Shown here: in pieces, positions 5,215 through 44,700 of the stretch
Numbering within the stretch: position 1 is the first letter of the stretch
Layout of the letters: every line of letters starts with the position of its first letter
Source: Gemmatales bacterium
Lineage (GTDB): Bacteria > Planctomycetota > Planctomycetia > Gemmatales > HRBIN36
Length of the DNA stretch: 64,000 bases
Direction of reading: 5' to 3'
Assembly: GCA_041640595.1 (NCBI GenBank)
Contig: JBEPZY010000004.1
Coordinates: 194,373 to 258,372 of the forward strand
Translations under genes and position numbers: made by a program
Notes under the pieces: model-generated
Told to the model about the DNA's origin: nothing
Databases searched by the model: none
Seen by the model: the letters and a program-made list of their open reading frames with translations, nothing else

Positions 5215-5750
5215 CCAAGACGATTGCGGCCCATTGCGTGGCTAGCAGTCGGCGGCCCTTTGCCAAAACCTGACGAAGCTAAGGCAGACCTTGCGCGTTC
5301 CAAACGCCCCCCTAGCAAGCACTCGCGGTCCGTAGGCTGGTCCGGTACCAGCCGTAGGCAGGCCTCGCGTGTTCCAGGTGCCCCCGAACAAACAGGCGAC
5401 CCGACGTAACCGTTATGACCCCCATGCCTTACCTCCAGCGGAGCCCCCGTCAAAACCGGCGACGAACCAGACCGTGCATGAGCGCCGCTTGGCAAATTAA
5501 CCAGCAGCAATATCAGGCAGTAATCAACCGGTTTAACAGGGACGCAAACAATCCACCTAATTACAGTGTCTTCGACTATAATTGTACGAACTGGGCATTC
5601 GATGTGCTCAATCGGGAAACTCATATCCGCTGGAGGCCCCAACTTGTACAGGAGCGTGTAACAGGCAGGTGGTTGTTGGCACCAGCTCAAGTCGGTGTAG
5701 AATTGCGCAGGAATCCAGTACCACAAAACGGGATAGGGTTAGAACCCTAA
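5215..5750 (+). pseudogene. Orphan toxin C-terminal fragment, papain-like/PPPDE-like 'NC' peptidase
   Basis: ...NPPNYSVFDYNCTNWAFDVL motif; the 5' part is broken by stops, frameshifts and an internal duplication; directly followed by a secreted protein gene. Confidence 0.5.
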
Positions 5751-5782
5751 GCAATGAAAAGTCCATGCGAGGGAGAGCAAAC

Positions 5783-7078
5783 ATGACCAGGTCTCACCGA
5801 GTGGTGAAGCTGGCGGTCTTCTCAATGTTCGCGGCTGTCCTGGGAGGGATAATTAGCATGTCGCTGGCGGCTAGAAAAATCTCCGTTCTTGGAGACCTCG
5901 AGGACTGTGCACACGTAAGATTGTCTTTGCAAGATGGCCAGGTTCGAGTGCACGCTATAGAACCCTCAGGCCGGTTACTCATGCTCGACTTGAAGACTAA
6001 GGAAATCAAAAAACTGAGGGTAAAAGATTTAGAACTTGACGGCACGCAGCACATCTCCGTCGGAGGCCTGTTTGCCCCTATGAGTCCAACTCATTACGGT
6101 GTTAGAGCTCCAGATTCAAGCTTAGTCAACCTTTTTGTCGTGAGGGGAGCCGGTGAGGATTGCCAAACCTGGCTAGTTGATTTAGATACTGGAGCCGCCG
6201 TACTTCGACTCGAGGGTGGCTGGTACTGCTTGCCTACCGGCGATGGGATCTACGTTGTCTGGTCAGGCGAGCGAATACCTGGAAAAACGAAGCAGGAGTA
6301 TATTATCTATCGCTATGCAAATGCTAGGTTAGAAAAATTCTCGTCCTGGCAGCCTGATTTACCCATACAGAGTATTCTTTTTGCTCGATCACACGGAAAC
6401 TCGATTCGTATAGTTTGCGAGCGTCTCGTAGGAGAGAATCAAGGTACCCAACACAAGGTCGGGCAATTAGGACAAGCTCGTGCTATTTATCTCATAGATT
6501 TAGAAACACAGACAGCCAGAGTCCTGAGGTCTAAAAAGGTATTGGAGCTAAAACGCACTCCAGGCCGTGACAAGTCCTGGCCTTCAGCAGCAGTCTTCCC
6601 CGCACCATCGCCTGATAGCGTCTATATATACGAGCCTCAGAATCGTTCTCTCTATCTTTTTGACTGGAAGACGCTCCAAATGATTCGTGAGTTAAAACTG
6701 CGGATTCAAAAGAACTCAGAGGATAATGAATGGGAGCTCATTCCCTTCTTTATTATCCATCCTAATAAACCTCTGGCATTGCTGGTGTTTCCTATGGGGT
6801 TCGTATATCTGTTAGACTTGTCAGACGGTAGCCTTCGCCTATTGGGCGATGAACATTTCAAGAAGTTAAATCAATTTGTCATGACGCGCAGCCAGGAAGA
6901 GCCACTGGTTGGGTTAGCGGCAGTGCATTTTATGATGAAAGATGGAGTTTTCATGCCTAACGAGAATCAGGTGGTTGTAGTCGCGGGTTCTGGACATGTT
7001 TATATTTACAACTTAGCGCAGTCCAGACTGGACGCAGTTTTTCGTCTGACAGCAGAAGACCTCTTCGAACGCAAATAA
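5783..7078 (+). CDS. Secreted/membrane-anchored beta-propeller-like protein, candidate immunity protein
   Basis: ATG at 5783 after GGGAGAG; hydrophobic N-terminus; repeated 'W/YLxDLxTG'-type blade motifs; lower GC than the backbone. Confidence 0.7.
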   Translation: MTRSHRVVKLAVFSMFAAVLGGIISMSLAARKISVLGDLEDCAHVRLSLQDGQVRVHAIEPSGRLLMLDLKTKEIKKLRVKDLELDGTQHISVGGLFAPMSPTHYGVRAPDSSLVNLFVVRGAGEDCQTWLVDLDTGAAVLRLEGGWYCLPTGDGIYVVWSGERIPGKTKQEYIIYRYANARLEKFSSWQPDLPIQSILFARSHGNSIRIVCERLVGENQGTQHKVGQLGQARAIYLIDLETQTARVLRSKKVLELKRTPGRDKSWPSAAVFPAPSPDSVYIYEPQNRSLYLFDWKTLQMIRELKLRIQKNSEDNEWELIPFFIIHPNKPLALLVFPMGFVYLLDLSDGSLRLLGDEHFKKLNQFVMTRSQEEPLVGLAAVHFMMKDGVFMPNENQVVVVAGSGHVYIYNLAQSRLDAVFRLTAEDLFERK

Positions 7079-7121
7079 ATTAATAAACCACCGTCAATAT
7101 AATTTTGCCTGTCCTGCGCAC

Positions 7122-8560
7122 GGGCACGATCCCGACGGGGACACTATGACCGCCCCAATGCCTTCAACCCCAGCGTTCCCGCGGCGTAATCAATTTCGCC
7201 TCCGGCCAACAGGCCTGACCAACGGCACACTGACACTCAATCCCGACGGCAGCTTCACCTATACGCCGAACACGCACTACGTCGGCCCGGACAGTTTCAC
7301 CTACACTTGGTCGGATGGTATGGGAAGCAGCGATGTCGGCACGATAAGTATAGATGTGGGGACCTACGCCGAGGATGAGTTGTGGGCACTGATGATCGAA
7401 ACGGACGGGGAGACGCGAGTACCTTACTGCAATGCGGATGATGAGGTCGTTCATTGGACTAGACACGACATATTACATATCCAACTTAGTCGGCCTATTG
7501 ACCGGGATGTTATAGTTGAATTACGGCTCGGCGTTATGGGCGACAATGGTGAACCCGCCGTTCAGGAATCGTCACGTTTATTTCTTCAAGTAGGAGAAAC
7601 CAGGGGAAAGTATCTGACGATTCCGATCACCACGGATGGTTCAGGACATCTAATATTGGTTTGTGTCGATCAAGACACCGGGGCTAGCGTAGACCTGGGA
7701 GAGACATGTATTCCAGCCCGTATACTGGCTGCTACTGGGACCTGGGTGCCACTGCGACCAGTCGTTACACTTGTACCCAATGCGGTGAGGACCTACAAAA
7801 AGACGATTTTCTGCGAGACCTCGGTATAAGCGAGCTCATCCACAACTGTGAACGTCAGCATCCGATCGCTCTGGAAATGCATCACGACTTTCAGCATGCC
7901 CTCGGAGAATATCTCAAGGATGTCAAGGTAGGGAGGATCCGCTTGAGAATCTCCGTCTTGTTCCCGGAGAAATCCATCAGCAAGCAACAGAATCCCATAG
8001 GCTCTGGTGGAACAAGAAAATGAATGAACCTGATGCGAGAGGCCTGATCCCAAGAAGGAGAAAAGGATTTCTGGACTTAGACCCACGTTTCGCTAAAGAG
8101 GCATAGGAACGATAACTGGTCATTGTATCTTAGTACAATGCGCTAATTCAGAGATTGGTCAGCGAACACACTTAAATCCGCACTCGTCCCCGTCTCATTC
8201 TCGAAGGCTGATCTGAACGGAGCGGTTAGCAAGCTGAGGGATATAGCCGAGCTTGCCCATGAGTCCAATCAACGAGGACGGTACTGGGCCAGAACTATCG
8301 CGTAACTACGCCGAGGAGTAACGATCATGGGCGCTGTTGCCAGTGGGCTATAACTAGCAAACCTGGTATTTAGAGCGGCAGACCTCCAGGAACAGCAAAC
8401 AGTTATTAACCCAACTATTGAGTGTGTTAGCAGACTTAGAGACTTTGAAGACGCACTGGCTCGTGGTTATTACCATCTAGTGGAGCTTGCTCTGGAGCGT
8501 AGGGTCAACTTCAGCGAAGCGTTGACTACATAGTTGCAGCATCAATTTCAATATAATTGA
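7122..8560 (+). pseudogene. Orphan cassette: Big_9 stalk fragment plus a decayed toxin with an HNH-like nuclease motif
   Basis: 7220-7355 encodes TNGTLTLNPDGSFTYTPNTHYVGPDSFTYTWSDG; downstream frames join as EMHHDFQHAL...DPLENLRLVPGEIHQQATESHRLWWN; multiple stops and frameshifts. Confidence 0.6.
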
Positions 8561-9262
8561 TGACACAACTAAGGGAGTCCTCAAGAAGAACGTGTGGTTG
8601 ACTTTGTGAGCGCCATCGGGCAATCGTTGTTTTGCCCTGTCAGAATGGTATTCCTGAGTTGGTAAAGAAAAAGAACATCTTCAGCCCCGATAAACGTATG
8701 TGGATCAGCCATTTTGGAAGACACGGGGACCGGCTTTCCGTGATAAGTCGTGGCATAGTCACTCATGGTGGAGAGGACTTAGATATTGGAGAGGCTATGG
8801 TTTATATAATTGACCTAGCTCGGCAAACGGTTGTCAGAAAAATTCGGGCCATAGACTTATGGGAAGCTGACTATGAACCGGTGTGGATTAGCCCTTCCGG
8901 GCAATACGTGGTCAATGCCGCTGGCGGCTGGTATCTAATACGGCACTAGAATAGACATAAGAAGGACGAGGTAGAGTTCCCATCATTGGGACGCATGTAC
9001 CGGGAAGTGGGGGACAAACAACTCAGTGGTGACCCACACAGTTATTATGTCCGAACCAAGCGCATTGTAGCTGCTGTGGAGGGCGATGGAGGAGCCGTGA
9101 TACTTTTCCAGATCCGTGACGATATGATTGACCTCCTAATTTATTAGCACGCCCATGATGACCAGATAGCAGCACTGGAACTCGATAGCTCCGGAGAGTA
9201 GGTGCTCACGGCGGGGGTTGACGGATTAATCAAGATATGTTCAATCCAACCGCACAAGTGAT
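8560..9262 (+). pseudogene. Decayed WD40/beta-propeller protein, candidate immunity gene
   Basis: ORF 8632-8949 continues in frame through stops to AHDDQIAALELDSSGE*VLTAGVDGLIKI, a WD40-like repeat. Confidence 0.6.
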
Positions 9263-9474
9263 TCCTTTGGAAGACATAAGGTGTTGAAGCGAGGTTTTGC
9301 GGGCTAGTTTCACAAGTGCCTTGCAAGAAGCGAAGTCCAACGAGTTTTACAAGCCTATTGATCGCCCGTGGCGGAATTCTGTGGCGAAGACAGGCAAGGC
9401 GATAAGAGCATGAATAAGACTTCCGCCTGGCTGCTCTCTCTGATAAGGTACGACGGTACCCTTTGCGATAGGCG

Positions 9475-10824
9475 TTATGGTTTCTGCGGACCAGTGGCGG
9501 GTACACTAGGGGGTTTGTGGGCCTTGCGTTCAGTTGTGACTTTCCAGACTGGCCGCAGATATTCTTTTCCGGTGTTTTCTTTACCCCAATGCTCCCAGGG
9601 TATGATAGGGTAAACGTCGCCGGTTCTAGCGTTAATCCACAGTTCTTGCAAGGTGGGCTGCACGAAATATAAACTGGCTTTGGCCATATCAACCTTATCG
9701 GGGTGGCGAAAGCGCGGAAGGGCTACACGTACGATCCAGTAGCAATCTCCTAAGGCATCCGTCAAGCCCATTATGTGAAAGCAAAATTCATCATAATGCA
9801 CCATGGCGTGAAAGTACAATCCATCATGTGCCTTCGGCTCTGGCTCAGGTAGCAGGTCAAATTCTCTGGAATACTTTATAAGGGCGTGCGCTAGCTCTGG
9901 TTTAGACTTCACAACCTCCTGCATCGCCCGTTCCAGAGCCTGGCGCTCATTGGTTACCTTAGCGTTTTTCGGAAAATTAAATAAAGTAAATGCCTCACCT
10001 GGATTACGGAGTAGCAGTGGCCAGGAACCAAGGTCCCGTTCCATCTGGTCCAGAAGACCAGGGAAAGGAATTCCTGATCCGGGCATTCTCTTGGTCTGTA
10101 TTGGCTTCCTTTTCAGTCTCTCATCAGGCAAAGCTGACTCGTCCTGCACGATTAGAAATTCGAGTATGCGTGTACTTCGGGCATTGAGAAAAACATAGCA
10201 GGGCTGCATCTCCGACACCTCTCGTTTCAAAACCCAGACAGGGTCCCCGGCTTCGCCGAAACCATCTACAGGTACTCCGAGAATTAGCAAACTCGTAACA
10301 ACGTAGGGGTGGATCGGTTCCATAGCTGCTGGCCAATATTCATCACCCTGCGTCATTAGAAACTCCAGCGCCTCTTTGGGACTGCGAATTTTGCACTGCT
10401 GGACTATACTTTCTCTCCACTCTTTGAACACGATATTCATCTCTTCACACAGGAGGTATGCGGCGTAACCATCGGTTCCCGATTGTAAATCCAGCAGCGG
10501 TAGTAAACATTTGACCCGGGCCATGGCTATCTGACCAAGCGTACCTCGCCGACTGGGAGGCTCCAGAAATCCCTTCCATATATCAAGAAGCTTTTCAACT
10601 TCTTCGCCCTTGGCTTCTGGAATCCTGGACACAGTTCCAGCAGCTTTATCTTGCTCCTTCGACGACCCAGATTCCAGGACTTTTTGCGGCTTGCCAGCTG
10701 CCTCGCCACTGGAGCCACCTTTGGTTCCAGCCTCCTGGTCGGACTCGACGCAAGCGCTCTGGATAGTTAGTAGCCAGACTATTCCCAGAGCATAGATCGC
10801 AATGGTTGCAAGGGTCTTCCTCAT
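9475..10824 (-). CDS. Lipoprotein with two internal repeats of a GDxxWxV...(I/L)NAR(T/S) domain, candidate immunity protein
   Basis: 449 aa; lipobox-like QSAC; AGGAGA RBS; motifs GEAGDPVWVL..FLNARST and ALGDCYWIV..WINARTG. Confidence 0.75.
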   Translation of the reverse strand: MRKTLATIAIYALGIVWLLTIQSACVESDQEAGTKGGSSGEAAGKPQKVLESGSSKEQDKAAGTVSRIPEAKGEEVEKLLDIWKGFLEPPSRRGTLGQIAMARVKCLLPLLDLQSGTDGYAAYLLCEEMNIVFKEWRESIVQQCKIRSPKEALEFLMTQGDEYWPAAMEPIHPYVVTSLLILGVPVDGFGEAGDPVWVLKREVSEMQPCYVFLNARSTRILEFLIVQDESALPDERLKRKPIQTKRMPGSGIPFPGLLDQMERDLGSWPLLLRNPGEAFTLFNFPKNAKVTNERQALERAMQEVVKSKPELAHALIKYSREFDLLPEPEPKAHDGLYFHAMVHYDEFCFHIMGLTDALGDCYWIVRVALPRFRHPDKVDMAKASLYFVQPTLQELWINARTGDVYPIIPWEHWGKENTGKEYLRPVWKVTTERKAHKPPSVPATGPQKP

Positions 10825-10909
10825 GGCTGGTCTCCTGTTTACTTAGATCGGGTGCTGCTGCAAAGCGTGTAATCGCATGCTTCTACTTATCAGCGGCGGT
10901 TGTGCCGTC

Positions 10910-11675
10910 ACTTTTTAGGCGGCTTCATTTCTTCGGGGGCGTATAACACGTGGGAAACACGGACTCCGGGATTAAGGGGCGGAAACAAGCCCACCATCTG
11001 TCATGTCCGCGAATTAACGAAATAAAAATTCGAAGTCGTGATTCTAAATGGGCTTCCTTCCGTTCGGCTGTCCCAACAACCCTCGCTCACCAACCAGATC
11101 AAATCTCCGGCCTTTCCTAAACCCGGTGTGTCGCGTCCCAGCATGAATATAGCCTCTATCCTTGGAATGTAAAGTCTCAGCCTCACTTCCTCCCTGATTA
11201 CTTCCGGTGGAAGTCCGGGCAGCTCTTTCAGGAGGCGTTTTTCCAAGGCGATTGGCGGATTGGCGTCGTGCGCTTCCGGAACAAAAAAATTGTCCAGCTG
11301 GCATTCCCCGGGCAGCATAAGCTTGACAGAGTTGATATGGCAGAGCTTGTTCTCCTTCTGGAACTTCGTAAACCACTCGTGATCATCTTAGCGCTCGAAT
11401 AGATGATCCGTGCAGTTGAGGAAACGGATGACGCCGGCGTCTTCGCGGGCGCGATGGTATAGATATTCCCAAGTGGATCGGCCTGCCTGTGTATTGTTAG
11501 CGCGCGCACGAGCCAAGATCTGGTCTTTATAAAACGTTAGTACATCGGTCAGTGGAATCGGAAAACGGTTAAATCGCTCAGGCTCCTGAGCAATCGAGTA
11601 ATACGTCAGGGCTGTTCCAGCCAAGAAGGCTACTAGGTGACTGAGGCAATACAGGGCATAGCGGCGCATCATCAT
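10910..11675 (-). pseudogene. Secreted paralogue of 9475-10824, interrupted by two in-frame stops
   Basis: ORFs 11388-11675 and 11001-11318 share a frame; motif GKAGDLIWLV..FVNSRT*QMV matches WINARTGDV of the neighbour. Confidence 0.7.
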
Positions 11676-11791: not shown

Positions 11792-12574
11792 TTATTCTCC
11801 TTTCCTAATAAGCTTCTCTAAACGCCAATCCTTCGAGTTCTTGCCAGAGGTAGAAAGTTCAATGACGTAGGGGCCGCACCCTGCAACAAGCGTCCATTTT
11901 TCGTCCTTGAAGTGCAGCGCGACGATTCTGATGTCCTTTGTGAGCAATTGCCTAGCGGCCTCACGACCTAGAGCTTCTGTCAATTTTTCCTTTAAAGGTA
12001 CCTGATGGTCAGGGATAGTAGTAAAGTTTTTCCATTCGGATAACCTATAGTGTACGCCCAGCTTGTCGTACGAGGCTGGTCGAGGTGGCAGGGGATCCAT
12101 GTGCGACTGATTAAGGTTAATGCTATAAAACGCTAAACAGGGTTTTTCTTCTCCTGGCAATGCGAAAACAAGCTCAAACAACCCTTCGTTAGACAGGCTA
12201 GCTTGAAACCCATAAGGGGCCTTCTTTGGTTCTGTGAAGTCTCTATCGCCAAACCTGGCTGTCCAATTAACTGACCGCACTCTGCTTTTGGAGTCCCGCA
12301 ACTGATCTAGTATTTCGACGTATAGCCTGATCCAGACATCTTTATAAGAGACGTTCGGGGGCGCCCCAAAGTCGTGCTCGACACGAATTTTCTCCCAGCC
12401 AACTTCGGCCACTTGATGCGCAGCTATGCGCACGCTCAAGACCTTGTGTGGGCCATCCTGATTGGCTTGCGTTGACACGGCATTATTCGAAGTGAGCAGC
12501 AGGACAGTTCCAAATAAGGACAAATATGCCTTTATTGGGTTCATGGAATTCACCCTCACGTTAGTGGAAATCAT
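11792..12574 (-). CDS. Secreted protein, candidate immunity protein for the upstream transglutaminase-like toxin
   Basis: 260-aa ORF with a signal-peptide-like N-terminus (start may be 12544), immediately downstream of the toxin end. Confidence 0.7.
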   Translation of the reverse strand: MISTNVRVNSMNPIKAYLSLFGTVLLLTSNNAVSTQANQDGPHKVLSVRIAAHQVAEVGWEKIRVEHDFGAPPNVSYKDVWIRLYVEILDQLRDSKSRVRSVNWTARFGDRDFTEPKKAPYGFQASLSNEGLFELVFALPGEEKPCLAFYSINLNQSHMDPLPPRPASYDKLGVHYRLSEWKNFTTIPDHQVPLKEKLTEALGREAARQLLTKDIRIVALHFKDEKWTLVAGCGPYVIELSTSGKNSKDWRLEKLIRKGE

Positions 12575-12610: not shown

Positions 12611-14786
12611 TTAGCCTACCTGCACGAAGACGATCTCTAAAATGGTCGGGTCATTTTTCTTAGCCCGCAATCCCGCTGGGAAAACGTATACGAAACCATC
12701 CAGAGCAGCGTTCTCCCACTCATTTTTCCGTGCTGTATGGTCCTCCGCCATAAGAAGGATCATAATAGGCATCTGCAACCCGCACGACGAAATGATTTGC
12801 AAAAGCGGAAGGTGGATCGGGATTGCCTTGTCCCGGTACCCCCGCTTTTGGCTTAACTTCGGAGACCGTCGGGTCATCCAAATCTATTATATATGTGTAG
12901 GGACTAGTCGCTGGAGAACCGCCTGCGCCGTTGAATTCCCAGTTCTTGACCAGCATACCTGTTCGCCACGGTAGGGCATATAGTCCGGTGACTGGGTCTA
13001 TGGGTTGGTCAGCACTAAATACCATGAATTTTCTAGCCCCCTGAACGCTTATGGCCCCGTAAGTATCTATCAGCAACTCGGCCCAGGAGCCGCACTGGCC
13101 GTTTGCGTGGGCTAAAAGTTGCTGTGTGTTGACCGCAGTGGCCCTGCCGCCAGCCCAGTACCTCAATTGAGTGTCATCCACACGACGGACTTCCCGATCA
13201 GTGAAATCACTCCAAATTGCTGAGATAACATCTGATTCGTTTGTTTTGCCGTCAGCGTTCTTCGAGCCCAGATGCACCAGGGTATGGTATAAGTTTACCC
13301 CTGGTTTGAGGGCAGGGTCGGCAAAAGTAAGGTACAAAGGATTTGGCGTCGACCCCGCCTTCGTCCAGGTTGAGTTGGCGCGCTGGCTGTCGGAGGTGGC
13401 TTGCCAGTCCAGCCTGAAGAGATTTGCACCAACGTAAGCTTGCACCACATTCGGAAATGCCACCGGCGACTCCGTTACGTCAAGCACGAGTTCAGTCGGG
13501 TTCGTCGGGTCGACGCGCACAGCCTTCGGCCCTACGTGAATCTGGAATCCCGTCGCAGGGTCCGCCGGCCCCGTCGCCATCACATAAATCGGGCCGCCAC
13601 CCCACGCAGTATCTAAGACGAACCGGGCACTCACTTTCAACGTTGTACCCCGGGTGTAAGCGTATGGCCAGCTATGCTCATCCGCATCCTCCGCATCCCC
13701 GTCTAAGTTTTTGTCCAACCAGTGTTCCGAACTATAGGCCACGTCGGGAGCTATTACTCCAGTCGGGTCCAGCTCCGGGTCCCGGTACACGGTATGCCCG
13801 CCGCTGAACGTTACCGACCGGATACCAAGGATTTTAGCCGTGTGAACAACGACCGTTTGCGTCGCCTCGGCAACCCCATCACTAACGGTGTACGTGAACG
13901 AGTCGTCCCCAGTGTGTGGAGCATCTGGCCGCTCGACTGCATAATAAACAAAATCACCGTTGGGATTCATCACCAGCTGAGCACCGGATGGTAGTCGCAT
14001 CAACTGCCGCGGTGGCTGATCGTTAATCTTGACCACGCGTAAGCTATCGCCATCGGCGTCAGTATCGTTCGCCAGGACGTTTCCCCGAACGGCACTCCCC
14101 GCCAGGACGTAATACTCGTCATTTACAGCCTCCGGAGCAGTGTTATGAACAGCAATCCAAGCCACAGCCATTTGTCGGAACTAGAGAATTCATTTGCCAA
14201 CCAGAGAGGAGCAGTGTTATGAACAGTGTCCAAGCCATAGCCACTGGGATTGTTAACAGTGAGTTTATTATACTGGTAGTGGAGCAGTGTTATGAACGGT
14301 GATCCAAGCCATAGCCAGGCCTAAAGCTATACCATCCGTAAACCCAAATACAAAAGCATCGGTGCCAGTATAACCAGCCGCCGGTGTATATCTAAACCTG
14401 CCATCATCATTCAATACCACCGTGCCATTCGTCGGAGCGGAGATTAGTTGCGCCGAGAAAACGCTGGGGCTTGAAAGCATTGGCACGGTGATAGCGTCGC
14501 CGTCCGGATCGTAGCCGCAGAGCTGGCCGACCAACTCGCGGTCGTGCAATACACTGAAACTCTGCATGGCGCCCAGCTGGGCAGACCTCCACCTATAGTA
14601 GCCGGTCGGTTTGTGATCATCCAATACGCTGAAGCTGGCATCGTAGGCATACGGCGCGTTGTTATAAACATCTATCACGACAGTGGCCGTGTTGCCGGTG
14701 GTCAGCCCATCCGACCAGGTGTAGGTGAAACTATCCGTACCGACGTAGTGCGTGTTCGGTGTATACGTGAAGCTGCCGTCGGGAAG
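12611..14786 (-). pseudogene. Orphan cassette: Big_9 stalk repeats plus transglutaminase/papain-like Cys-His-Asp toxin domain
   Basis: ORFs 14268-14678 and 12720-14171 are in the same frame; motifs GQCGSWA, FANHFVV and YYDPSYG; one extra A near 12723-12727 truncates the C-terminus (EWENAALDG continues in ORF 12611-12877); no start or signal peptide. Confidence 0.75.
14134..14317. repeat. CRISPR-like mini-array inside a coding sequence: three 36-37-nt repeats and two unique 37-nt spacers
   Basis: Repeats at 14134-14170, 14208-14243 and 14281-14317 (GGAGCAGTGTTATGAAC...CCAAGCCAYAGCCA); spacers at 14171-14207 and 14244-14280. Confidence 0.9.
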
Positions 14787-14832
14787 GGCACTTGGCTGTG
14801 AGCAAACAGCAGCTGCCCATCTTACGGGCAGC

Positions 14833-15828
14833 CTACGGAGTTTTCGGAGCTAAGTCGCCACTCGGTTTCAGAAGGTTTTCTACCAAAGGTTTGATCGCTG
14901 GATGGTTTTCTTTCTCCATTAGCTTCAGGAGTTCTGGAGTCATGTATAACTTCGGATGCTTTCGCACCTGTTCTACCAAATATCGCCTCACATACCACTG
15001 CGGACACGAATCCCATAGTCGTTGAAGGTCTTGCGCAACTCTCTTTTTGAGCACCTCAACATCTTTCTGCAAAGCTAAGCATCGATCCTCTGGCAGGTAC
15101 TTTCGCAACTCGGCCTCACTTCTCACCCAGGTCTGCTTAAGCTCTAAATTACGGACCTCGGAAGACACATACCCAAACAGCACCCTATGTCCTGGCGGTA
15201 CTTCTTCGTCTAGCCAAGAACTATAAACTTCGAAGAATAGTTGGACGGCCTGTACGGGCTTTTCCTCGAAAAGTCGGTCCAGGAATTCTTTCGGAGGCAA
15301 TTTTCCCTGACGCAAGTATGAGGCCAGCCATGTTTCTATCCCAGCAGGTCTAGATGGATATGGTCCAAAAGACTTATCAGGCAGGAATTCAAGTACATAT
15401 TCTAATGCGGACCTGCGGAGCTTGTCATCGTCGGAAGATTCTATCAGAGGCAATAATGCTCCTGTAAACCGGTCTCCCGCAACTTGGGTGACAATTGTGA
15501 TTAGCTTGTAAATTGCCATAAACTCGGGATGCGGCTGGTCGTCGGACGTCTGCTCGCCCAAGAACAGCAACTCTTTTAACAGTTCTTTAGCTGCTGCTGT
15601 CTGAGCAGCATCCGGCACAGGTTTCTGGAACAGCAGCAGCGCCTCATGGGCAACTAACCAGTGTTCCTTATCCGTTTTTGCCCTTTTTGCTTGGTGGATG
15701 ATCTGCCGCATCTTTTCGGCCGCTTGATGCTCTGCATTAGCCTCCTGAGCATCTGCGTTTAGTGTCACCAGCACTTGCAGCAGCACGAGCACTCGTGCGA
15801 AATTATTGACGACTCTGAGCATAGCCAA
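14833..15828 (-). CDS. Secreted helical candidate immunity protein (paralogue 3)
   Basis: Signal peptide; shares YLxxGxLPP, WYVRRYL and TPELxKLMxxExHPAIKPLVE with 16310-17263 and 17757-18743. Confidence 0.8.
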   Translation of the reverse strand: MAMLRVVNNFARVLVLLQVLVTLNADAQEANAEHQAAEKMRQIIHQAKRAKTDKEHWLVAHEALLLFQKPVPDAAQTAAAKELLKELLFLGEQTSDDQPHPEFMAIYKLITIVTQVAGDRFTGALLPLIESSDDDKLRRSALEYVLEFLPDKSFGPYPSRPAGIETWLASYLRQGKLPPKEFLDRLFEEKPVQAVQLFFEVYSSWLDEEVPPGHRVLFGYVSSEVRNLELKQTWVRSEAELRKYLPEDRCLALQKDVEVLKKRVAQDLQRLWDSCPQWYVRRYLVEQVRKHPKLYMTPELLKLMEKENHPAIKPLVENLLKPSGDLAPKTP

Positions 15829-15834
15829 TGCCTC

Positions 15835-16260
15835 CTACTTCCATGACCGAGCTTCCAGACGGGTGCGGATTCCCCTCCAAACCAGAATTTGGTTATCAAT
15901 ATTGTAATGGTCTATATCTGCGCTAACCAAGGTCATATCAATGTTCACTGTAGGACGGCCTCCAGGATCCAAGTCGGTAGCAAAGCCAACGGGGCCACCG
16001 TTTCTTTGGTAGTAGTTAACGTGGTATTCTGAAGGAGGACGCCTCCTTTCGGGGAAAGGTAAACGGCGATTGGACCAGGTCACAGCGTCAATGTAGGCTG
16101 TGAAATCGATAACAAAGGGCCCCTCTAGCTTTTGCTCGTCGCGCAATTTCTTGAGCTGTGTGGTAAACTCATAGGTCATGGCTCCGCCGGAACTATAGCC
16201 CATGGCAGCTATATACTTGACACCCCGCGAGCCAACTATGGCACCTTTGAGGTTTACCAT
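15835..16260 (-). CDS. Orphan C-terminal half of an alpha/beta-hydrolase toxin
   Basis: MGYSSGG nucleophile elbow, AYIDA and DHYNID; homologous to the C-terminus of 18763-21504. Confidence 0.7.
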   Translation of the reverse strand: MVNLKGAIVGSRGVKYIAAMGYSSGGAMTYEFTTQLKKLRDEQKLEGPFVIDFTAYIDAVTWSNRRLPFPERRRPPSEYHVNYYQRNGGPVGFATDLDPGGRPTVNIDMTLVSADIDHYNIDNQILVWRGIRTRLEARSWK

Positions 16261-16474
16261 GTGTTAGCGCAGCATTAGGTAGTCGCAACAGCTGTCGAGC
16301 TCTCACACTCTAACCTGACGGGAAAAAGCGGGCATAAACTTCCTCGAGCTCTTCCACGAGCGGCTTGATCGCCGGATGCTTTTCCTGACGCATCAACTTC
16401 ATTAACTCGGGAGTCAGAAAAATGTTCGGATACTTCCGCACATAATGAACCAGATACCGTCGCACATACCATTC
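16163..16474. repeat. ~310-bp direct repeat, copy A (immunity 3' end, intergenic region and 5' end of the hydrolase fragment)
   Basis: Near-identical to 17610-17921, offset 1447 nt. Confidence 0.9.
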
Positions 16475-17263
16475 CGAGCAAGCTTCCCAGCTGTCTGTCA
16501 GCATTCGTCGTACACGTAGTTTCTCTGATTCGAAAAGCCTCCGAAGCTCCTTCGCCACTGCCTCTGTCTTATATTCAGAATCATGGACGTACCAAAACAA
16601 TTCGACCGCGTTCCTGACTGAATACGTAGCAAGACTCAGATAGTCCTTACTCTTCTCAGACAGTTGAGTACCACAGTACCGTTCGTTTATTTGCCACAAT
16701 TTGCGCAAAGCCATTTCCGGATCCTTTTCGAACATTTTATCTAACAAGCCTTTTGGCGGCAGCTCTCCTTTCTTCAAGTATTGACCAATCCACGAATCTA
16801 TCCGATGATCCTCACCGGAAGCGTAGTAGTCTATTATATGACTCCTGGCGGATTCCACCACCTTATCGCTGCGGGGCCCCTCTAACATTGGTAAAAGCGA
16901 GACAACAAAATTCCTTCGCGCTGGTGGAACCATCTCTATCACTGTGTGCACGGTTATTACCGCATCCAGGCGGGGGTCGGGCTTGTCATCGGTCGTTTTT
17001 TCCATAGCATCCACTAACTCTTCTATAAGTGCACTTGCTGCTGGAACATCTGTCTTCTGCTCGAACATCGAAACTGCCTGCACTATCAAAAGCCATCTTT
17101 TCTCAGGAGCCTTGGTGTTCTGCAGTTCACGAAGCAGCGCGCGAATCCTAACCGCGGAGTCCTGATCCACATTCTGCTGCTGAGCAGTGCCCTGTAGAAA
17201 GAGCGCTGTCACAATTGCCGCTGATGCTAACAAGGCAAGTTTGTATCTGATAGTCATGGTCAT
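16310..17263 (-). CDS. Secreted helical candidate immunity protein (paralogue 2)
   Basis: Signal peptide, AGGAGA RBS overlapping the upstream stop; C-terminus almost identical to paralogue 1. Confidence 0.8.
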   Translation of the reverse strand: MTMTIRYKLALLASAAIVTALFLQGTAQQQNVDQDSAVRIRALLRELQNTKAPEKRWLLIVQAVSMFEQKTDVPAASALIEELVDAMEKTTDDKPDPRLDAVITVHTVIEMVPPARRNFVVSLLPMLEGPRSDKVVESARSHIIDYYASGEDHRIDSWIGQYLKKGELPPKGLLDKMFEKDPEMALRKLWQINERYCGTQLSEKSKDYLSLATYSVRNAVELFWYVHDSEYKTEAVAKELRRLFESEKLRVRRMLTDSWEACSEWYVRRYLVHYVRKYPNIFLTPELMKLMRQEKHPAIKPLVEELEEVYARFFPSG

Positions 17264-17269: not shown

Positions 17270-17722
17270 TTATTTCCAGCCCCAGCTCTCCAGCGCTTCA
17301 CGTATTCTCCTCTGCACGTCCGCTTGATTATCAATGCTGTAATGGTCTACCGGTGGGTCCAGACGAATGTTAATCGTCGTGCGAATGGGAGCCCCGACTG
17401 CTGCGGTTGCCTCTCCGTTCAGGGGTATAGAACCTGTCGAGAACCCAGTATTTTGTTGATAATGGTTTATGTGATAAGTGGTTGGTGGCCTCTTTGTTTC
17501 TGCCGAAGTCTTGCCCTCAGTGGACCACTTTATGGCGTCAATGTAGGCACTAAGGCTCAATTGTGCCCAGTTAACTTGACTTTTGCTAATGCGGTCGAAC
17601 AGTTCCGTCGTAAACTCATAGGTCATGGCGCCGCCGGAACTATAGCCCATGGCAGCTACATACTTGACACCCCGCGGCCCAATTATGGCACCTTTGAGGT
17701 TTACCATGTGTAAGCCCAGCAT
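17270..17722 (-). CDS. Orphan C-terminal half of an alpha/beta-hydrolase toxin
   Basis: MGYSSGG, AYIDA and DHYSID, ending WGWK like the EQGWK end of 18763-21504. Confidence 0.7.
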   Translation of the reverse strand: MLGLHMVNLKGAIIGPRGVKYVAAMGYSSGGAMTYEFTTELFDRISKSQVNWAQLSLSAYIDAIKWSTEGKTSAETKRPPTTYHINHYQQNTGFSTGSIPLNGEATAAVGAPIRTTINIRLDPPVDHYSIDNQADVQRRIREALESWGWK

Positions 17723-17921
17723 TAGGTAGTCGCAACAGCTGTCGAGCTCTCACACCCTAACCTGACGGGAAAAAGCGGGCATAAATTTCCTCGAGCTCTT
17801 CCACGAGCGGTTTAATCGCCGGATGCTTTTCCTGACGCATCAACTTCATTAACTCGGGAGTCAGAAAAATGTTCGGATATTCCCTCACATAATGCAAGAG
17901 ATGCCGGCGCTCATACCATTC
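17610..17921. repeat. ~310-bp direct repeat, copy B
   Basis: Near-identical to 16163-16474. Confidence 0.9.
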
Positions 17922-18743
17922 CTGGAATGAGGCCCAAGCCCGCACTAGCAAGGCACGGGCCTGTTTCTTATCACTCTCGCACCACGTCTTGACCTCTGCA
18001 ATGAAAGCCCGATCCCTTATATTGCCCTCCAAGCCATCCGCTTTTATCTGACGCAGTAAGCTATCAGCTGCAATAGCCTTTCTGATAGAGTGAAAAGTTG
18101 CATCTTTCAAGAATTCTCTTGCCGGGTCGGTCGCACGATTAGGTGTGTAATGGATCTCCTTGAGCATTATCGAAGCCTCCCCGGGACTCCGCTCAAATAG
18201 TTTGTCTAAAAATCTCCCCGGCGGCAACTGGTCCTTTTTCAAATAAGTAGCTACCCAGTCTCTTATGCGGCGATCCCCGGTATCACAATAATATTCAACC
18301 ACAAGATTGACATAGTCATTCGCCGTTTGCTGATCGGAATCCATCAAGGGTAGCAGGGAAACCATGAAATTGCCGTATTCAAATGGCATGTAGTAGAAAA
18401 GATACCGGATCAAAACCAAAGGCGCAGCGCACATTTTCGAAGGGTCTGCTTCGAGGTCCTCTAACTTTGGACATGCGTTTAATAGCGCCAAAGCTGCCTG
18501 TGGGTCCGGCCCTTTGAAAATCTCTCTTAAACCTGGCATCGCTATGACCAGCTTTTCCTCAAACTTTAGGTCTTTGCCTGTGGTCTGTTCGAACCGCATG
18601 ATTAGCTGGCGGACTTTTTCGGCCGACTCATCAGCAGGTTCAGCCTTTTGAGCAAAAGTAAGCGTCGAGATGACCGCCACTATTAGCCCTCCGATCACCG
18701 CCGAAACGCACACCGTAATTACTGCGCGATCCACTACGTTCAT
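17757..18743 (-). CDS. Secreted helical candidate immunity protein (paralogue 1)
   Basis: GGAGGT RBS, hydrophobic N-terminus, directly downstream of the hydrolase toxin. Confidence 0.8.
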   Translation of the reverse strand: MNVVDRAVITVCVSAVIGGLIVAVISTLTFAQKAEPADESAEKVRQLIMRFEQTTGKDLKFEEKLVIAMPGLREIFKGPDPQAALALLNACPKLEDLEADPSKMCAAPLVLIRYLFYYMPFEYGNFMVSLLPLMDSDQQTANDYVNLVVEYYCDTGDRRIRDWVATYLKKDQLPPGRFLDKLFERSPGEASIMLKEIHYTPNRATDPAREFLKDATFHSIRKAIAADSLLRQIKADGLEGNIRDRAFIAEVKTWCESDKKQARALLVRAWASFQEWYERRHLLHYVREYPNIFLTPELMKLMRQEKHPAIKPLVEELEEIYARFFPSG

Positions 18744-21504: not shown

Positions 21505-21555
21505 ATGGGTTGGAATTCAGTTGTTAGATGTCTGCCCGTTATGTTTCGCCCCAGA

Positions 21556-21975
21556 TTATCGAGGGACCGCTTTGTAAAGGAAATATTTTTCTGCCTTGGT
21601 ACGCACGAAATAAAGATCCATTTCCTTGGTTCGAACAAGATGACAATCTGATGGCAGCTTCGTATATGCCTCGAAAGTTAGATCGTGCTTAGCCAGCAAC
21701 TCCCGTAGTTTTGCGCCGTAGCTCAGGGAAACCAGCGCGTTCTCCCGAGACCATTTCTCCTCGTCCTTGACAATTTCCATCAATTTAGAATAGCTCCTGT
21801 ATAATTCTGCAGGAAGGATATGCTCTGGTCCAACCTTCTTGACCTCGATTTGCTCCGCATGAGCCTTATGATTGGCGATGTAACAGACGGGCAAAAGTAA
21901 GGCACTACCAAGGAAGACCAGAAAGACGCCTGGCAGATTGTATGCAATGGGCAAGGGGTGAGGCTCGAATCGCAT
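21556..21975 (-). CDS. Small secreted/membrane-anchored protein, candidate immunity protein
   Basis: 139 aa, AGAGGAG RBS, one N-terminal hydrophobic segment. Confidence 0.65.
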   Translation of the reverse strand: MRFEPHPLPIAYNLPGVFLVFLGSALLLPVCYIANHKAHAEQIEVKKVGPEHILPAELYRSYSKLMEIVKDEEKWSRENALVSLSYGAKLRELLAKHDLTFEAYTKLPSDCHLVRTKEMDLYFVRTKAEKYFLYKAVPR

Positions 21976-22021
21976 GAGTGCTTCTCCTCTGGTTTATCAC
22001 ACGAGTTGGGCCATCGTTTAC

Positions 22022-24748: not shown

Positions 24749-24772
24749 TATTGCCTCGTTGTGTTAGTGCCC

Positions 24773-24864: not shown

Positions 24865-24889
24865 AGGCGGTATGGGGGAGAGAAGTGTA

Positions 24890-27845: not shown

Positions 27846-27877
27846 AGAGCACACCTCCCATCTAAAGGAAATACTGG

Positions 27878-30275: not shown

Positions 30276-30506
30276 TGTGATCATAGTCAGGATAGGTGGG
30301 CTGGGACTGGCGGGCAATGCTGTACTCATGAGAGTGCGTGTTAGAACTTGCTAATGAACCGGGGAGCACTGCCATGCATCAACGGCATTTGTTTTGCCTA
30401 TTGTTGTTATAGCTAGAATTGCTATCATTTTATCGTTATACAAATCAGCCGTGTATGTGGCGGCAACTCGTATACCCTGGCAGTCCGATGGGAATCATTG
30501 ACCTGG

Positions 30507-31824: not shown

Positions 31825-32330
31825 CTATGTTTGGATTACCCGGAAAATCTGCAGCGGCGCAACGGCATGGCTTTCGATTGCAGTGCCATCTCCTTCCAAA
31901 GCCGAGATGGTTCGCCGAGGTGGCCCGTTGTGATCGTATTCGTAGATTCTCGAATGGGCTACTTGCAAATCGTTGGCAGGGCCGTGTTCGAGAGTTACGA
32001 ATGCTTCCCAATTCGGATAACCATCATGGCTCAGGTAGTATGACATTTCCAAGTCATTGGGCGCAGCATTAATTCTGATTATCAAGTGCTTCAAACGCCA
32101 GTCAATGTTAGGAAAATCGGCGCTTGCTAAAGCGGCAAGCCAGGGGTACGACTCGACGAGGGCTGTGTTGGGAGGAGACCTGACCCAGAAGTGAGCCTGA
32201 AATGGATGGAGGCGATGTTCCATTCCTGCCCCGTTCGCAGCTGGCAAAAAACCAAATGGGAGCCTCAGATCAGGCCGGTGTTGTTTTTGACAAGTTGCGA
32301 ATCCGCAAGGCAGTGCAGTTTGAGAGTCCA
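31825..32330 (-). pseudogene. Orphan toxin-like C-terminal fragment (DUF3238-like HDGYP motif)
   Basis: LSHDGYPNWEAF...IYEYDH; 5' part decayed; coupled to the downstream lipoprotein gene. Confidence 0.45.
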
Positions 32331-32508
32331 GAGAAAAGGCGCACATAGACTTGGGCGGTGGGTCGGGAGGTGACAGGTCAGGGGCGAGTCCAGCGTGACA
32401 ATGGTCGGAAAAGCGGGGCCAAGATTCCACCATAGGGGTGACGACAACGAAAACACCCGGGTCGCAGTGGTCGGAAAAGCAGGGCCGGGGGTGGTGTGGA
32501 TGCGGACG

Positions 32509-41458: not shown

Positions 41459-41890
41459 TTAGGACCCTGGTCGTGGCTCATCGGTAAACCAGGTTAGCCT
41501 TATCCCCTCCTTCTTGGGACGGAAAAATACCAACAATTCGCCTTTGGGAGACCGCGTCTCGAAGTATGCGGCGCCCAGAGCGGTCCGTTCCCAATCTTCC
41601 GCGCTAGCAAATGGACCCGCCCCATAAGAAGGATCGTAGTACTTCCCGTTATATTTGACAACTGCGCGATTAACAAACACTTGCTTATTGATTGGCTTGT
41701 TATTGTCGCCCTGGACAGGTATAGAGCCCTGGGCATCGCTTGGCTTGACAGGACCTTGAGGATTATTCAGGTCGAAAGGCACCGTTTGAAGTCCTACATA
41801 ACACGCATAGCCTTGGGGAGGCGGAGGAAGATTGAGCTGCTGCGGTTGCGTTTAAAAGGAAACCACTTTCTCCGTCGCAAAAATGTTTGC
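41459..41890 (-). pseudogene. Orphan transglutaminase-like toxin tip, homologous to the 12611-14171 C-terminus
   Basis: VFVNRAVVKYNGKYYDPSYGAGPFASAEDWERTAL aligns with AFANHFVVRVADAYYDPSYGGGPYSTENEWENAAL. Confidence 0.75.
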
Positions 41891-43620: not shown

Positions 43621-43645
43621 CCCGTGCGATAAGACTGCCGTAAAT

Positions 43646-43906
43646 AGGAACGCATAGCATTCCGAGCACAAGATAACTGGTTGCAGGAACGTAAAAACGA
43701 AATTGTGGGTGTAGCGTAACAGAGATGCATAGCATTGCAAGCACAAGATAACTGGCCGGAGGAACGTAAGAACGAAATTGCGGGTGTGGCGTAACAGGGA
43801 TGCATAGCGTTGCAAGCACAAGATAACTGGTTGCAGGAACGTAAGAACGAAATGGTGGGCGTGGCGTAACAAGGACGCATAGCATTCCGAGCGCAAAATA
43901 ACTCGT
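43646..43906. repeat. 75-nt tandem repeat, 3 units plus a terminal ~36-nt part-unit
   Basis: GCATAGC starts at 43652, 43727, 43802 and 43877. Confidence 0.9.
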
Positions 43907-43925
43907 GCGAATTACGCAGGCCGCA

Positions 43926-44218
43926 GTTCCAATCCCACCGGCATGATGGCAGGTATCTTAGTTTGTGCGCAGGCTCCGGTCGCTGTACGGTGCGGAATGT
44001 TTCAATCCCACCGGCGTGATGGCAGGTCTGTTGGTTTGTGCGCAGACTCCGGTCGCTCTAGGGTGCGGAATGTTTCAATCCCACCGGCATGATGGCAGGT
44101 ATCTTAGTTTGTGCGCAGGCTCCGGTCGCTGTACGGTGCGGAATGTTTCAATCCCACCGGCATGACGGCAGGTATGCTAGTGATCGGGTTGAGCAGCCGT
44201 AACTCGCCAGCCTCGTAG
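43926..44218 (+). repeat. 73-nt-period array with a CRISPR-like 37-nt repeat (GTTTCAATCCC...); three near-identical spacers, then one unique 37-nt spacer
   Basis: Repeat starts at 43926, 43999, 44072 and 44145; unique segment 44182-44218. Confidence 0.85.
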
Positions 44219-44700
44219 GTTTCCATACCGACAGCACGTTCACCTATACACCGAACACGCACTATGTTGGCCCGGATAGCTTCACCTATACCTGGTCGGA
44301 TGGCCTGACTACCGGCAACACCGCCGCCGTCACTATAGATGTGTACAACAACGCGCCGTATGCCTACGATGCCAGCTTCAGCGTATTGGATGATCACGAA
44401 CCGACCGGCTACTATAGGTGGAGGTCTGCCCAGCTGGGCGCCATGCAGAGTTTCAGTGTATTGCACGACCGCGAGTTAGTCGGCCAGCTCCCTGTACGGC
44501 TATGATGCCGATGGCGATGCTATCACCGTGCCAATGCTTTCAAGCCCCGGCGTTTTCTCGGCGTAATCAGCCTCCGGCCCCACCAACGGGCCGGACCAAC
44601 GGTACACTAACACTCAATCCTGACGGCAGCCTTACCTATACATCGAACACGCACTATGTTGGAACGGATAGTTTCACCTATACCTGATTGGCTGGGTTGC
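44219..44700 (+). pseudogene. Isolated Big_9 stalk fragment, an inverted close copy of 14449-14786
   Basis: Same repeat DNA including the same 75-nt and 33-nt insertions; frameshifts and stops. Confidence 0.85.

Follow-up and report, generated by a model that had tools for sequence, protein, structure and literature searches.

A putative polymorphic toxin/immunity cassette store on a Big_9 stalk in a Gemmatales bacterium

The stretch of DNA analysed here, a 64,000-nucleotide (nt) window from the genome of a Gemmatales bacterium, contains between positions 5215 and 44700 an island of gene cassettes in which C-terminal enzyme modules ("tips"), some mounted on a stalk of Big_9 repeats and others cut short, are combined with genes for exported proteins. 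We consider it very probable that this island is a polymorphic toxin/immunity cassette store with the Big_9 stalk as its recombination anchor. This reading rests on the anatomy of the locus, the folds of its tips, abrupt homology breakpoints, intact parent genes and alternative joins in related strains, and a conserved pairing of tips and partners; toxicity, an envelope target, protection by the partner, and a route of export and delivery are inferred. A sequence-only reading of the window had proposed such a library with an Ig-like stalk as the anchor, and its core is supported by the parent gene, the breakpoints, a tip fusion in the related contig L066, the mobile tips, and the pairing.

In the proposed mechanism, the working unit would be an exported protein composed of a planctomycete leader, a Big_9 stalk, a beta-sandwich "pre-tip", and a C-terminal enzyme, and it would be intact only in related strains. 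The enzyme would vary (alpha/beta hydrolase, transglutaminase-like protein, HExxH metallopeptidase, and others in relatives), and the exported protein encoded downstream would be tip-specific and protect the producer's own envelope. The window would store 5′-truncated copies of stalk and tip as well as shorter orphan tips, each with an intact partner gene. Because the shorter orphans cover no more than a portion of a catalytic domain, they presumably cannot work alone. Homologous recombination through the stalk repeats and the stretches around the nucleophile motifs would exchange the tip on the stalk, and the partner genes that are kept could provide standing protection against the tips of relatives.

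The stalk, its leader and the parent gene

A Pfam scan that took in 27 open reading frames (ORFs) of the window found Big_9, Cadherin_5 or Cadherin_4 repeats in six of them, with E-values from 2.2e-7 to 7.5e-76. NCBIfam names the same units "tandem-95 repeat" (tand_rpt_95). Big_9 (PF17963) occurs at five sites, 7050–7829 (+), 14268–14849 (−), 18763–21516 (−, five repeats), 27878–30280 (−) and 44203–44716 (+). The features that bear stalks or were proposed as tips are as follows; the junction element named in some of them is described below.

18763–21504, minus strand: 917-residue gene with five Big_9 repeats, a beta-sandwich with a Ca motif, and an alpha/beta hydrolase tip (Big_9 E 7.5e-76)
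27878–30280, minus strand: start-less frame with four Big_9 repeats, a poly-Gly linker, and an HExxH tip (Big_9 E 2.1e-48)
14268–14849, minus strand: Big_9 stalk fragment with a junction element at 14445–14486 (Big_9 E 4.3e-22)
12720–14180, minus strand: orphan copy of one Big_9 repeat, a beta-sandwich, and a transglutaminase-like Cys-His-Asp tip (95.5% DNA identity to contig C3 over 14170–13081)
7050–7829, plus strand: junction-led Big_9 fragment (Big_9 E 1.4e-14), with no recognisable tip after ~7321
15835–16263, minus strand: start-less orphan holding the C-terminal two thirds of the hydrolase domain (GYSSGG), 40% identical to residues 780–917 of the 917-residue gene
17270–17749, minus strand: start-less orphan hydrolase tip with a partial domain, which is the expressed C-terminus of a stalk gene in L066
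39732–41851, minus strand: satellite cassette with a transglutaminase-like C-terminal fragment (41459–41851), followed by two genes, the latter of which encodes a signal peptide
5358–5750, plus strand: stalk-less ORF, candidate tip fragment with a "YNCTNWA" motif, ending 14 nt before the ATG of the next gene
31825–32433, minus strand: ORF formerly called a tip, a transposase-like fragment or of no known family (weak DDE leads)
44203–44716, plus strand: isolated Big_9 fragment with a junction element at 44528–44569 (TAA form), the right arm of a 30-kb inverted repeat

The stalk unit measures 267 nt. Three tandem copies lie at 20516–21316, and more copies occur on both strands at 30069–30335, 14617–14787, 7212–7369 and 44222–44746. 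The sequence-only reading had described a near-identical repeat at five sites; related Big_9 DNA is indeed present at five sites, but the copies share only 62–92% of their DNA. The best pair (14520–14787 and 44223–44490) is a 268-nt inverted repeat of 91% identity. The repeats of the window were catalogued as families D2, D3 and D7 and inverted pairs I1–I16, and the repeat finding is real and far beyond chance.

Most of these features are arranged in a row of minus-strand genes that runs from 32.4 kb down to 9.5 kb. The row begins with the ORF at 31825–32433, a lipoprotein gene, the start-less stalk with the HExxH tip, and a signal-peptide gene, continues through an integrase module (21.5–26.3 kb) to the 917-residue stalk/hydrolase gene and its partner, passes two orphan tip/partner pairs in succession, and ends with a stalk fragment, the transglutaminase-like module, its partner, and two further ORFs. 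A plus-strand piece (5358–7829) holds a candidate tip, an exported protein and a stalk fragment, and the satellite at 39.7–41.9 kb holds the final 130 residues of a transglutaminase-like tip. The GC content is 0.49–0.56 from 4 to 32 kb and 0.57–0.63 in most other bins.

When the 267-nt unit was compared with the genome (4.45 Mb, 95.5% complete) by blastn, 15 matches were obtained: 11 fall in the window and 4 at a single locus on contig C3. A protein-level scan for the stalk led to the same two places (15 hits in the window and 7 on C3). The parent gene is on C3; the earlier statement that the window itself holds no full-length parent is correct. The C3 locus (C3:617536-611004) encodes, in this order, a leader, three Big_9 repeats, an in-frame TAA, a further Big_9 repeat, a beta-sandwich, and a transglutaminase-like tip, and it continues with a lipoprotein gene, a junction-led stalk with a hydrolase tip, and a signal-peptide gene. 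Because the only parent is interrupted by the TAA, the system may be silent in the source genome.

Related loci were found on metagenome contigs (L-numbered), which are short-read assemblies. L056 carries two intact genes of 1449 and >887 residues that have a common N-terminal stretch (~310 residues by eye) and different tips, and L057 carries an intact 1039-residue parent, a partner gene, and then a junction-led orphan, a third combination of stalk and tip. In L055, a stalk is joined to a transglutaminase-like module without an interrupting junction element. L054 repeats the C3 locus, TAA included. It is probably a near-identical assembly and not an independent one, because L059, from the same record set, has the integrase of the window at 100%. 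A constant N-terminus with a variable C-terminus, as in polymorphic toxins, was observed in L056, in L057, and in the pair formed by the window and C3. The full-length stalk gene on which the sequence-only reading depended therefore exists, both as the TAA-interrupted C3 parent and as intact parents in related contigs.

The C3 leader (...RLRVEMLEDRNAP...) contains an LEDR-type motif (...LRVEMLEDR..P). The motif LE[DE..]R..P opens ~30 large ORFs of the genome (counted by eye from 93 regular-expression hits among 7780 ORFs) and heads the full-length tip-bearing gene of a Pirellulaceae metagenome-assembled genome (MAG), L052. It looks like a lineage-specific N-terminal motif associated with export, and we take LEDR-type motifs to be a mark of exported planctomycete proteins. 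A literature search for the motif found nothing relevant. Examples among the large ORFs are C2:658878-668405, C1:985922-992239 and C3:549313-553707, in which a basic stretch is followed by L.hE.LE[DES]R..P.

A (CA)n tract is located between an ATG linked to a ribosome-binding site and the leader, both upstream of the parent leader on C3 (L016, ~11450–11560, minus strand) and in L054–L057. Its length varies by strain (13, 11, 15 and 10 nt). Only the 11-nt form (L054) sets the ATG in frame with the leader; translation could alternatively start at a TTG immediately ahead of the leader. The variation in length may represent phase variation.

Enzymatic tips and their exported partners

A search of 1.84 billion proteins with the last 398 residues of the 917-residue gene matched 267 cluster representatives (E ≤ 1e-3). 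The matched proteins are 159–2024 residues long, and the match lies mostly at their C-terminus. The N-terminal parts of 30 long homologues carry Big_9 (6), TSP3_bac (9), Calx-beta (8) or RHS repeats (1); FG-GAP, beta-helix and RTX units also occur, and no family was assigned in two. Judged by these homologues, the hydrolase tip is a mobile C-terminal module that is borne by many different stalks. In a 48-row alignment, four positions (G273, G277, D311 and H375) do not vary, and S275 is conserved in at least 90% of the rows.

The AlphaFold model of the hydrolase tip has a predicted local distance difference test score (pLDDT) of 90.2. Residues 24–210 form a pair of beta-sandwiches similar to the Ig-like domains of peptidylarginine deiminases (Foldseek E 2.7e-8, at a template-modelling (TM) score of only ~0.28). 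The best fold match of residues 202–398 is 2qjw_A (Z 14.1, root-mean-square deviation (rmsd) 2.6, 150 aligned residues), followed by the phospholipase TleB (9j3f_A, Z 13.2, rmsd 3.4, 186 aligned residues), and many esterases lie within one or two Z units of the best matches. The fold, the GxSxG elbow, the acid and the His of an alpha/beta hydrolase are all present, with a Cys at position 275 in the 917-residue gene. The predicted structure confirmed the tip as an alpha/beta hydrolase with a conserved Ser-Asp-His triad, and the enzyme is probably an esterase or lipase. In a sequence search of the three main tips against all solved structures, nothing was found below E 0.5. The orphan tips carry no internal stops.

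The transglutaminase-like module has 28 relatives on varied stalks (Big_9, FlgD_ig, TSP3_bac, dockerin and PKD). C261, H356 and D367 are at least 90% conserved in the 29 sequences and follow the Cys, His, Asp order of a papain-like core. The best fold match of the model (pLDDT 91.6) is TG3 (8rmx_A, Z 8.4, rmsd 8.5, 289 aligned residues), and the other matches include factor XIII (4kty, Z 7.4), TglA (9crn, Z 7.0) and LapG (4fgo, Z 6.5). Foldseek gave 49 hits at E ≤ 1e-3, and among the matches listed all but one are transglutaminase-family chains (TG2, TG3, factor XIII and protein 4.2). As in animal transglutaminases and bacterial transglutaminase-like cysteine peptidases, an N-terminal beta-sandwich precedes the Cys, His, Asp core; in contrast to known transglutaminases, the Z values are only 6.5–8.4, the TM scores are 0.22–0.34, and no Pfam transglutaminase family matched. 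The modelled fold confirmed the transglutaminase-like identity of the tip; protein cross-linking, deamidation and cell-wall amidase activity are all conceivable for it.

Of the four enzyme names given to stalk-borne tips in the sequence-only reading, the alpha/beta hydrolase and the transglutaminase-like protein held. For the HExxH peptidase there are the motif (HELVH, residue 729 in a frame of 800) and a lead, weak at 0.86, to reprolysin-like Atlas clusters. The "HNH-like" tip at 7392–7829 is unsupported: it has no family match, the 145-residue tail of 7050–7829 has no Pfam hit at E ≤ 5, and homology to L066 stops at 7321, a rearrangement breakpoint. Among the stalk-less tips, 15835 and 17270 proved to be partial hydrolases, and 41459–41851 is transglutaminase-like, with 36.8–38.7% identity to the C-terminal ends of two such tips. 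The ORF at 5358–5750 has a sub-threshold match to Lnb_N (E 3.5e-4, 20.6 bits against a cut-off of 22.2). The claim for 31825–32433 as a toxin tip is unsupported; weak leads to DDE transposases were found instead (Plant_tran, E 0.066; Atlas DDE_Tnp_4 clusters, 0.86, under the recognition mark), and this ORF is more likely a transposase-like fragment or of no known family. Apart from the sub-threshold Lnb_N, Plant_tran and BamB-like matches, no family was obtained for any tip or partner (Pfam at E ≤ 5, NCBIfam at E ≤ 0.01).

Other junction-led or stalk-led cassettes with different tips are present at L060:2119-4446 and L058:2135-3772. One of these tips has an NDCW...H motif suggesting a papain/calpain-like peptidase and stands next to an exported propeller-like protein. 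These extra tips indicate that the population has a broader set of tips than can be seen in the window.

The exported proteins of the island are listed next. Their N-termini (a hydrophobic stretch or a lipobox) were judged from the translations and not by a signal-peptide predictor.

17757–18743, minus strand: signal-peptide partner directly after the 917-residue gene, hydrolase-tip partner family
16310–17263, minus strand: signal-peptide partner of the hydrolase-tip family, of which a near-identical copy follows the fused tip in L066
14833–15828, minus strand: signal-peptide partner of the hydrolase-tip family, paralogue of 16310–17263 and 17757–18743
11792–12574, minus strand: signal-peptide partner of the transglutaminase-like tip, candidate immunity protein, 29.5% identical to the gene after the C3 tip
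27369–27854, minus strand: signal-peptide partner after the HExxH tip (gap 23 nt; no family hit)
30507–31814, minus strand: lipoprotein (LSGC lipobox) with weak, below-cut-off PQQ_2/BamB-like matches, probably a beta-propeller
5765–7078, plus strand: exported protein with a signal anchor (hydrophobic N-terminus), candidate immunity protein, no family hit
9475–10824, minus strand: exported protein that closes the minus-strand row, N-terminus lipobox-like, no family hit

The gaps between tip and partner are 6–23 nt in the hydrolase and HExxH units (6 nt after the orphan 15835–16263) and 145 nt for the transglutaminase-like tip. The earlier claim that every tip is followed by an exported protein applies to seven of nine (gaps of 6–145 nt). 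It fails after 7050–7829, where there is none, and after 41459, where a signal peptide is present in the second gene but not in the first. The partner genes are full-length with intact signal peptides, whereas the tips are truncated.

In an alignment, three partners of the window and the C3 partner form one family. A profile from an 8-row alignment, searched against genome contigs, yielded four distant loci with hydrolase tips, and in two of these, an Acidobacteriota MAG (L050) and a Rhodopirellula MAG (L053), a partner homologue follows the tip. The partner profile gave E-values of 1.9e-10, 3e-10 and 8.6e-9, against only six sequences. L053 additionally holds an orphan tip and two partner paralogues. 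By these homologies, the tip–partner pairing is conserved across phyla, and a search for relatives of the partner protein found only two. Homologues of 11792–12574 stand directly after transglutaminase-like tips in L054, L058 and L060, and a 99% identical copy of 5765–7078 directly precedes a junction-led hydrolase cassette in L066.

Complex prediction with tip residues 200–398 and partner residues 37–328 gave scores of 0.61, 0.51 and 0.47 (median 0.51), and the best of three controls scored 0.00. The runs agree in at least 82% of the contacts, with a partner pLDDT of at least 85. Of 157 solved complexes, 116 attain the score mark, as do 2 of 215 mismatched pairs; with scores of 0.60 or under, it is attained by only 18 of the 157 solved complexes and by both mismatched pairs. 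The predicted complex lends weak support to the pairing.

Breakpoints, alternative joins and junction elements

The transglutaminase-like cassettes of the window and C3 are 95.5% identical over 1090 nt and then cannot be aligned as DNA. The identity ends at the last base of the QCGSWA codons (13097–13080), and the partners of the two cassettes are only 29.5% identical. Several metagenome proteins have one conserved front and at least three different backs beyond the QCGSWA motif. The hydrolase orphans begin ~14 residues ahead of the GYSSGG elbow, and a 300-nt repeat of 94% identity covers the 3′ end of a partner and the 5′ end of an orphan. Since the breakpoints lie at the nucleophile motifs in both enzyme classes, the exchanged unit appears to begin inside the catalytic domain, and an orphan starting there would be unable to fold alone. 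The HExxH gene resembles the L057 parent as far as residue 380 and no further, a point immediately ahead of its poly-Gly linker at 383.

Contig L066 joins three parts of the window in a new order: 6206–7321 (98.0% identity), 20664–19325 on the other strand (97.3%), and 17679–14626 (96.2%; positions 2516–5573 of L066). Here, a single 694-residue ORF fuses the window's stalk and pre-tip to the orphan tip 17270, and the matching partner and then the next orphan pair follow. P0002 (661 residues), on another contig, is an ORF of the same type. The recombination expected of orphan cassettes was thus observed, with 15835 and 17270 partial in the window and 17270 fused in L066. L073 joins window 16308–14448 to 44887–52505, as expected from a 30-kb inversion between the inverted stalk fragments. 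The crossovers lie within long homology: in L066 it extends over ~100 nt, and in L073 it is the 268-nt repeat. The reads of four runs were also compared with the window. Their contigs are short and broken at repeats (run X7 has no cover over 8922–11356), and they neither confirm nor refute the arrangement. Read joints with sides of <50 nt (14517>13081, 13190>20564, 11702>13360 and 7299>6000) were not used, because they may come from paralogous copies or other strains.

The orphan cassettes open with the last part of a stalk repeat (...YGYDPDGDAIT); next come a 33-nt insert, not present in normal stalk repeats, and then GCG-TAA-TCA. This junction element is located in the genome at C3 616651, C3 613870, window 44528 (+) and window 14486 (−), with diverged forms at ~7150 and ~30270. 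Three of the four elements have the TAA; the copy at 14486 has CAA and leaves the frame open. The frame after the junction is 0 or +1 depending on the copy, and because it varies, the junction DNA and not a peptide is conserved. The metagenome loci have the element at seven places with 96–98% identity (blastn). Where the upstream part is visible (L057, L060, L066 and L054), it stands at the start of an orphan, and it is missing from the intact parents. In three genomes of the same genus (78–93% complete), the pattern had no match with up to three mismatches. The junction may serve to silence orphans or to mark them for recombination, or it may be no more than a scar that a single old insertion left and that duplication has since copied. 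Three other ideas were dropped: the 33-nt insert does not look like a misplaced clustered regularly interspaced short palindromic repeat (CRISPR) spacer, as it has no flanking duplication of ~37 nt such as that of the 73-nt scars described below; stop-codon read-through or frameshifting does not agree with intact parents that lack the element; and no hairpin of an integron-like attC was evident by eye.

Small insertion scars have a distinct build, an approximately 37-nt duplication around a ~36-nt insert, and are polymorphic between strains.

14208–14317, minus strand: repeat-insert-repeat scar of 73–74 nt (37-nt repeat, 37-nt insert with stops, 36-nt repeat)

This scar throws the transglutaminase-like module out of frame with the stalk fragment, and a contig of X7 skips 73 nt at 14225–14299. 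A second scar of 75 nt lies at 14550–14626 (−) and is missing from contigs of X2, X3 and X7. X3 and X7 carry an extra scar at 14012–14048 (a 37-nt duplication and 36 new letters) that is not in the window.

Competing explanations, known systems and distribution

Several observations weigh against the cassette-store reading. The 917-residue gene, the most complete of the window, has no recognisable leader, and its nucleophile position holds Cys (GYCVGG), whereas the orphans have Ser. The sole parent in the genome is broken by the in-frame TAA, many cassettes of the window are broken by frameshifts or 73–75-nt insertions, and the island may be largely decayed. Among the four distant loci, the downstream gene of L052 encodes an unrelated small membrane protein, and the contig of L051 ends at this point. 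The alternative joins come from short-read contigs, and L073, a single contig, may be a chimeric assembly at a repeat. As for a delivery machine, the sheath family VipB of type VI secretion systems (T6SS) was not found in this 95.5%-complete genome, with a positive control in E. coli. Finally, an anchored partner after a lipase-like gene could equally be a dedicated foldase.

Part of this evidence would be expected of a gene graveyard, in which adhesin and digestive-enzyme fragments are decaying after being broken by a mobile element, repeat rearrangements and small insertions, with no toxin function and no library. The start-less fragments, the TAA in the only parent, the frames interrupted by 73–75-nt insertions, and the integrase module in the middle of a low-GC island agree with such decay, as does the related genome G006, which has numerous stalk fragments in similarly fragmented copies. 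We nevertheless give this explanation little credence, because the partner genes are all full-length with intact signal peptides although the tips are truncated, the orphan tips are free of internal stops, orphan 17270 is used as the expressed C-terminus in another strain, the breakpoints fall at defined module borders in independent contigs, and the tip–partner pairing is kept across phyla.

It is also very unlikely that the tips are nutrient-acquisition enzymes that digest environmental polymers, with the downstream proteins as enzyme-specific foldases or inhibitors. Arrays of partial, start-less tips that keep full partners have no place in a foldase model, and at least three unrelated enzyme classes each have their own unrelated exported partner. 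The partners diverge along with the variable half of the tip, one distant homologous tip (P0087) sits on RHS repeats, and no Pfam family, hence no foldase family, matched a partner at E ≤ 5. In favour of the nutrient reading are a generic esterase/lipase fold that ties with many non-toxin esterases, the failure of the VipB search to find a delivery apparatus, and a partner of ~320 residues with an N-terminal anchor encoded directly downstream, which is also the layout of lipase–foldase operons.

We regard as extremely improbable a shufflon-type switch in which the island's tyrosine integrase inverts segments at the junction element and places tips behind a constant stalk: stalk fragments and junction elements do occur in both orientations around an integrase, an inversion and an inverted join are seen between strains (two contigs), and the element is highly conserved at its seven metagenome places, but the crossovers of L066 and L073 lie in long homology, the only parent is on another contig, the integrase belongs to a separate module with its own cargo and among the fetched loci occurs only in L059, a copy of the window, and intact parents have no junction element. 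In R64-type shufflons, a tyrosine recombinase is found close to alternative segments, in either orientation, that encode the C-terminus of a surface protein. The island resembles them in its alternative tips in both orientations and the recombinase nearby; it differs in that the crossovers observed in the two contigs fall in long homologous repeats and not at a short fixed site, and the constant part is not adjacent.

The cassette-store reading can be compared with described toxin systems. Polymorphic toxin systems have an export part, a repeat stalk, a variable C-terminal enzyme, and an immunity-type gene downstream, together with stand-alone recombining tip cassettes and tips common to differing N-terminal parts (Zhang, de Souza, Anantharaman, Iyer and Aravind 2012; PMC3482391). 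The island likewise has an export part, a stalk, a variable enzyme, a downstream gene, and stand-alone tips, but its stalk is Big_9/"tandem-95" and not RHS, filamentous haemagglutinin (FHA) or another of the repeat types named in the matched passages of that paper, whose text has no occurrence of the word "Cadherin" (PMC3482391). It further differs in its planctomycete LEDR-type leader, in tips and partners outside Pfam and NCBIfam families, and in a swapped unit that seems to begin inside the catalytic domain. No described system of this build for Planctomycetota was found in the literature. The build is new, a known toxin-system logic made from different parts.

Orphan cdiA-CT/cdiI, rhs-CT/rhsI and mafB-CT/mafI arrays consist of 5′-truncated tip genes, downstream of the full-length gene or away from it, each with short upstream homology and an intact immunity gene, and the tips are exchanged by homologous recombination. 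The truncated tip genes of the island similarly keep upstream homology and an intact partner gene. Unlike in those arrays, the stalk genes contain no RHS or DUF1020 domain and no two-partner secretion (TPS) or FHA family (Pfam and NCBIfam), and the single RHS_repeat match of the genome is elsewhere (C3:80130). A genome search for the CdiB-type transporter family ShlB gave no match, and neither did its control. The orphans are spread over a 40-kb island, where they occupy either strand, and a second contig, the partners are exported, and the orphan starts bear a conserved stop-bearing element. The hydrolase tip also resembles the type VI lipase effectors that are paired with periplasmic immunity lipoproteins (Tle/Tli; TleB, 9j3f) in its alpha/beta hydrolase fold, GxSxG motif, and exported partner encoded alongside; it differs from them in that its fold ties with ordinary esterases, it has no sequence similarity to solved chains, no T6SS sheath gene was found in the genome, and the tip is covalently attached to an adhesin-like stalk.

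A more elaborate form of the cassette-store reading is programmed tip switching particular to a genus of hot-spring planctomycetes, and we consider it unlikely that all four of its parts hold together. In this form, orphans would be silenced and marked for recombination by a ~75-nt junction (the repeat end and a 42-nt TAA element), only the C-terminal sub-domain from the nucleophile onward would be exchanged, together with its exported partner, the variable (CA)n tract would gate expression of the parent, and export would proceed via the LEDR-type leader, a route new for inter-bacterial toxins.

The tip was found in all three other genomes of the genus and in none of 11 genomes from the five other genera of the family. 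Twenty runs from 15 studies hold the sequence, almost all of them hot-spring or microbial-mat metagenomes, and in three of the 20 at least half of the sampled words are present. Toxin systems that act between bacteria have been studied extensively in Proteobacteria and Firmicutes. The present locus supplies an inventory of parts: leader, stalk and pre-tip, no fewer than three enzyme classes that Pfam does not cover, and the exported partners. It also captures, in nature, what would be tip switching between strains and provides a concrete model for planctomycete competition in hot-spring mats. It contains candidate new toxin and immunity families and a putative case of recombination that swaps part of a catalytic domain instead of the whole domain. 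The stop-bearing junction at orphan starts and the variable (CA)n tract before the leader could be regulatory.

The mobile element inside the island forms a separate module.

21556–26308, minus strand: small membrane protein, tyrosine integrase (22022–23779), and two unknown or HTH-like genes

The integrase matches Phage_integrase (Pfam, E 3.9e-7) and has one full paralogue in the genome, on C1, with 39% identity. Residues 402–465, its C-terminal extension, recur with 69–90% identity at five other places of the genome (C2, C9 twice, C5 and C3), where the remainder of the gene is not present; this 64-residue stretch may be a small repeat element that overlaps the ORF. Tandem arrays with a period of 73–75 nt (3–4 units each, 76–95% alike) at 43643–44181 and 44887–45251 border the stalk fragment 44203–44716 on either side and have the same period as the repeat-insert-repeat scars. 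Copies of a hairpin element with the core GGCGGGC-GTCA-GCCCGCC are located at 55663–55848, 56032–56104 and 63616–63688, and the element includes a 93-nt tandem pair of 99% identity.

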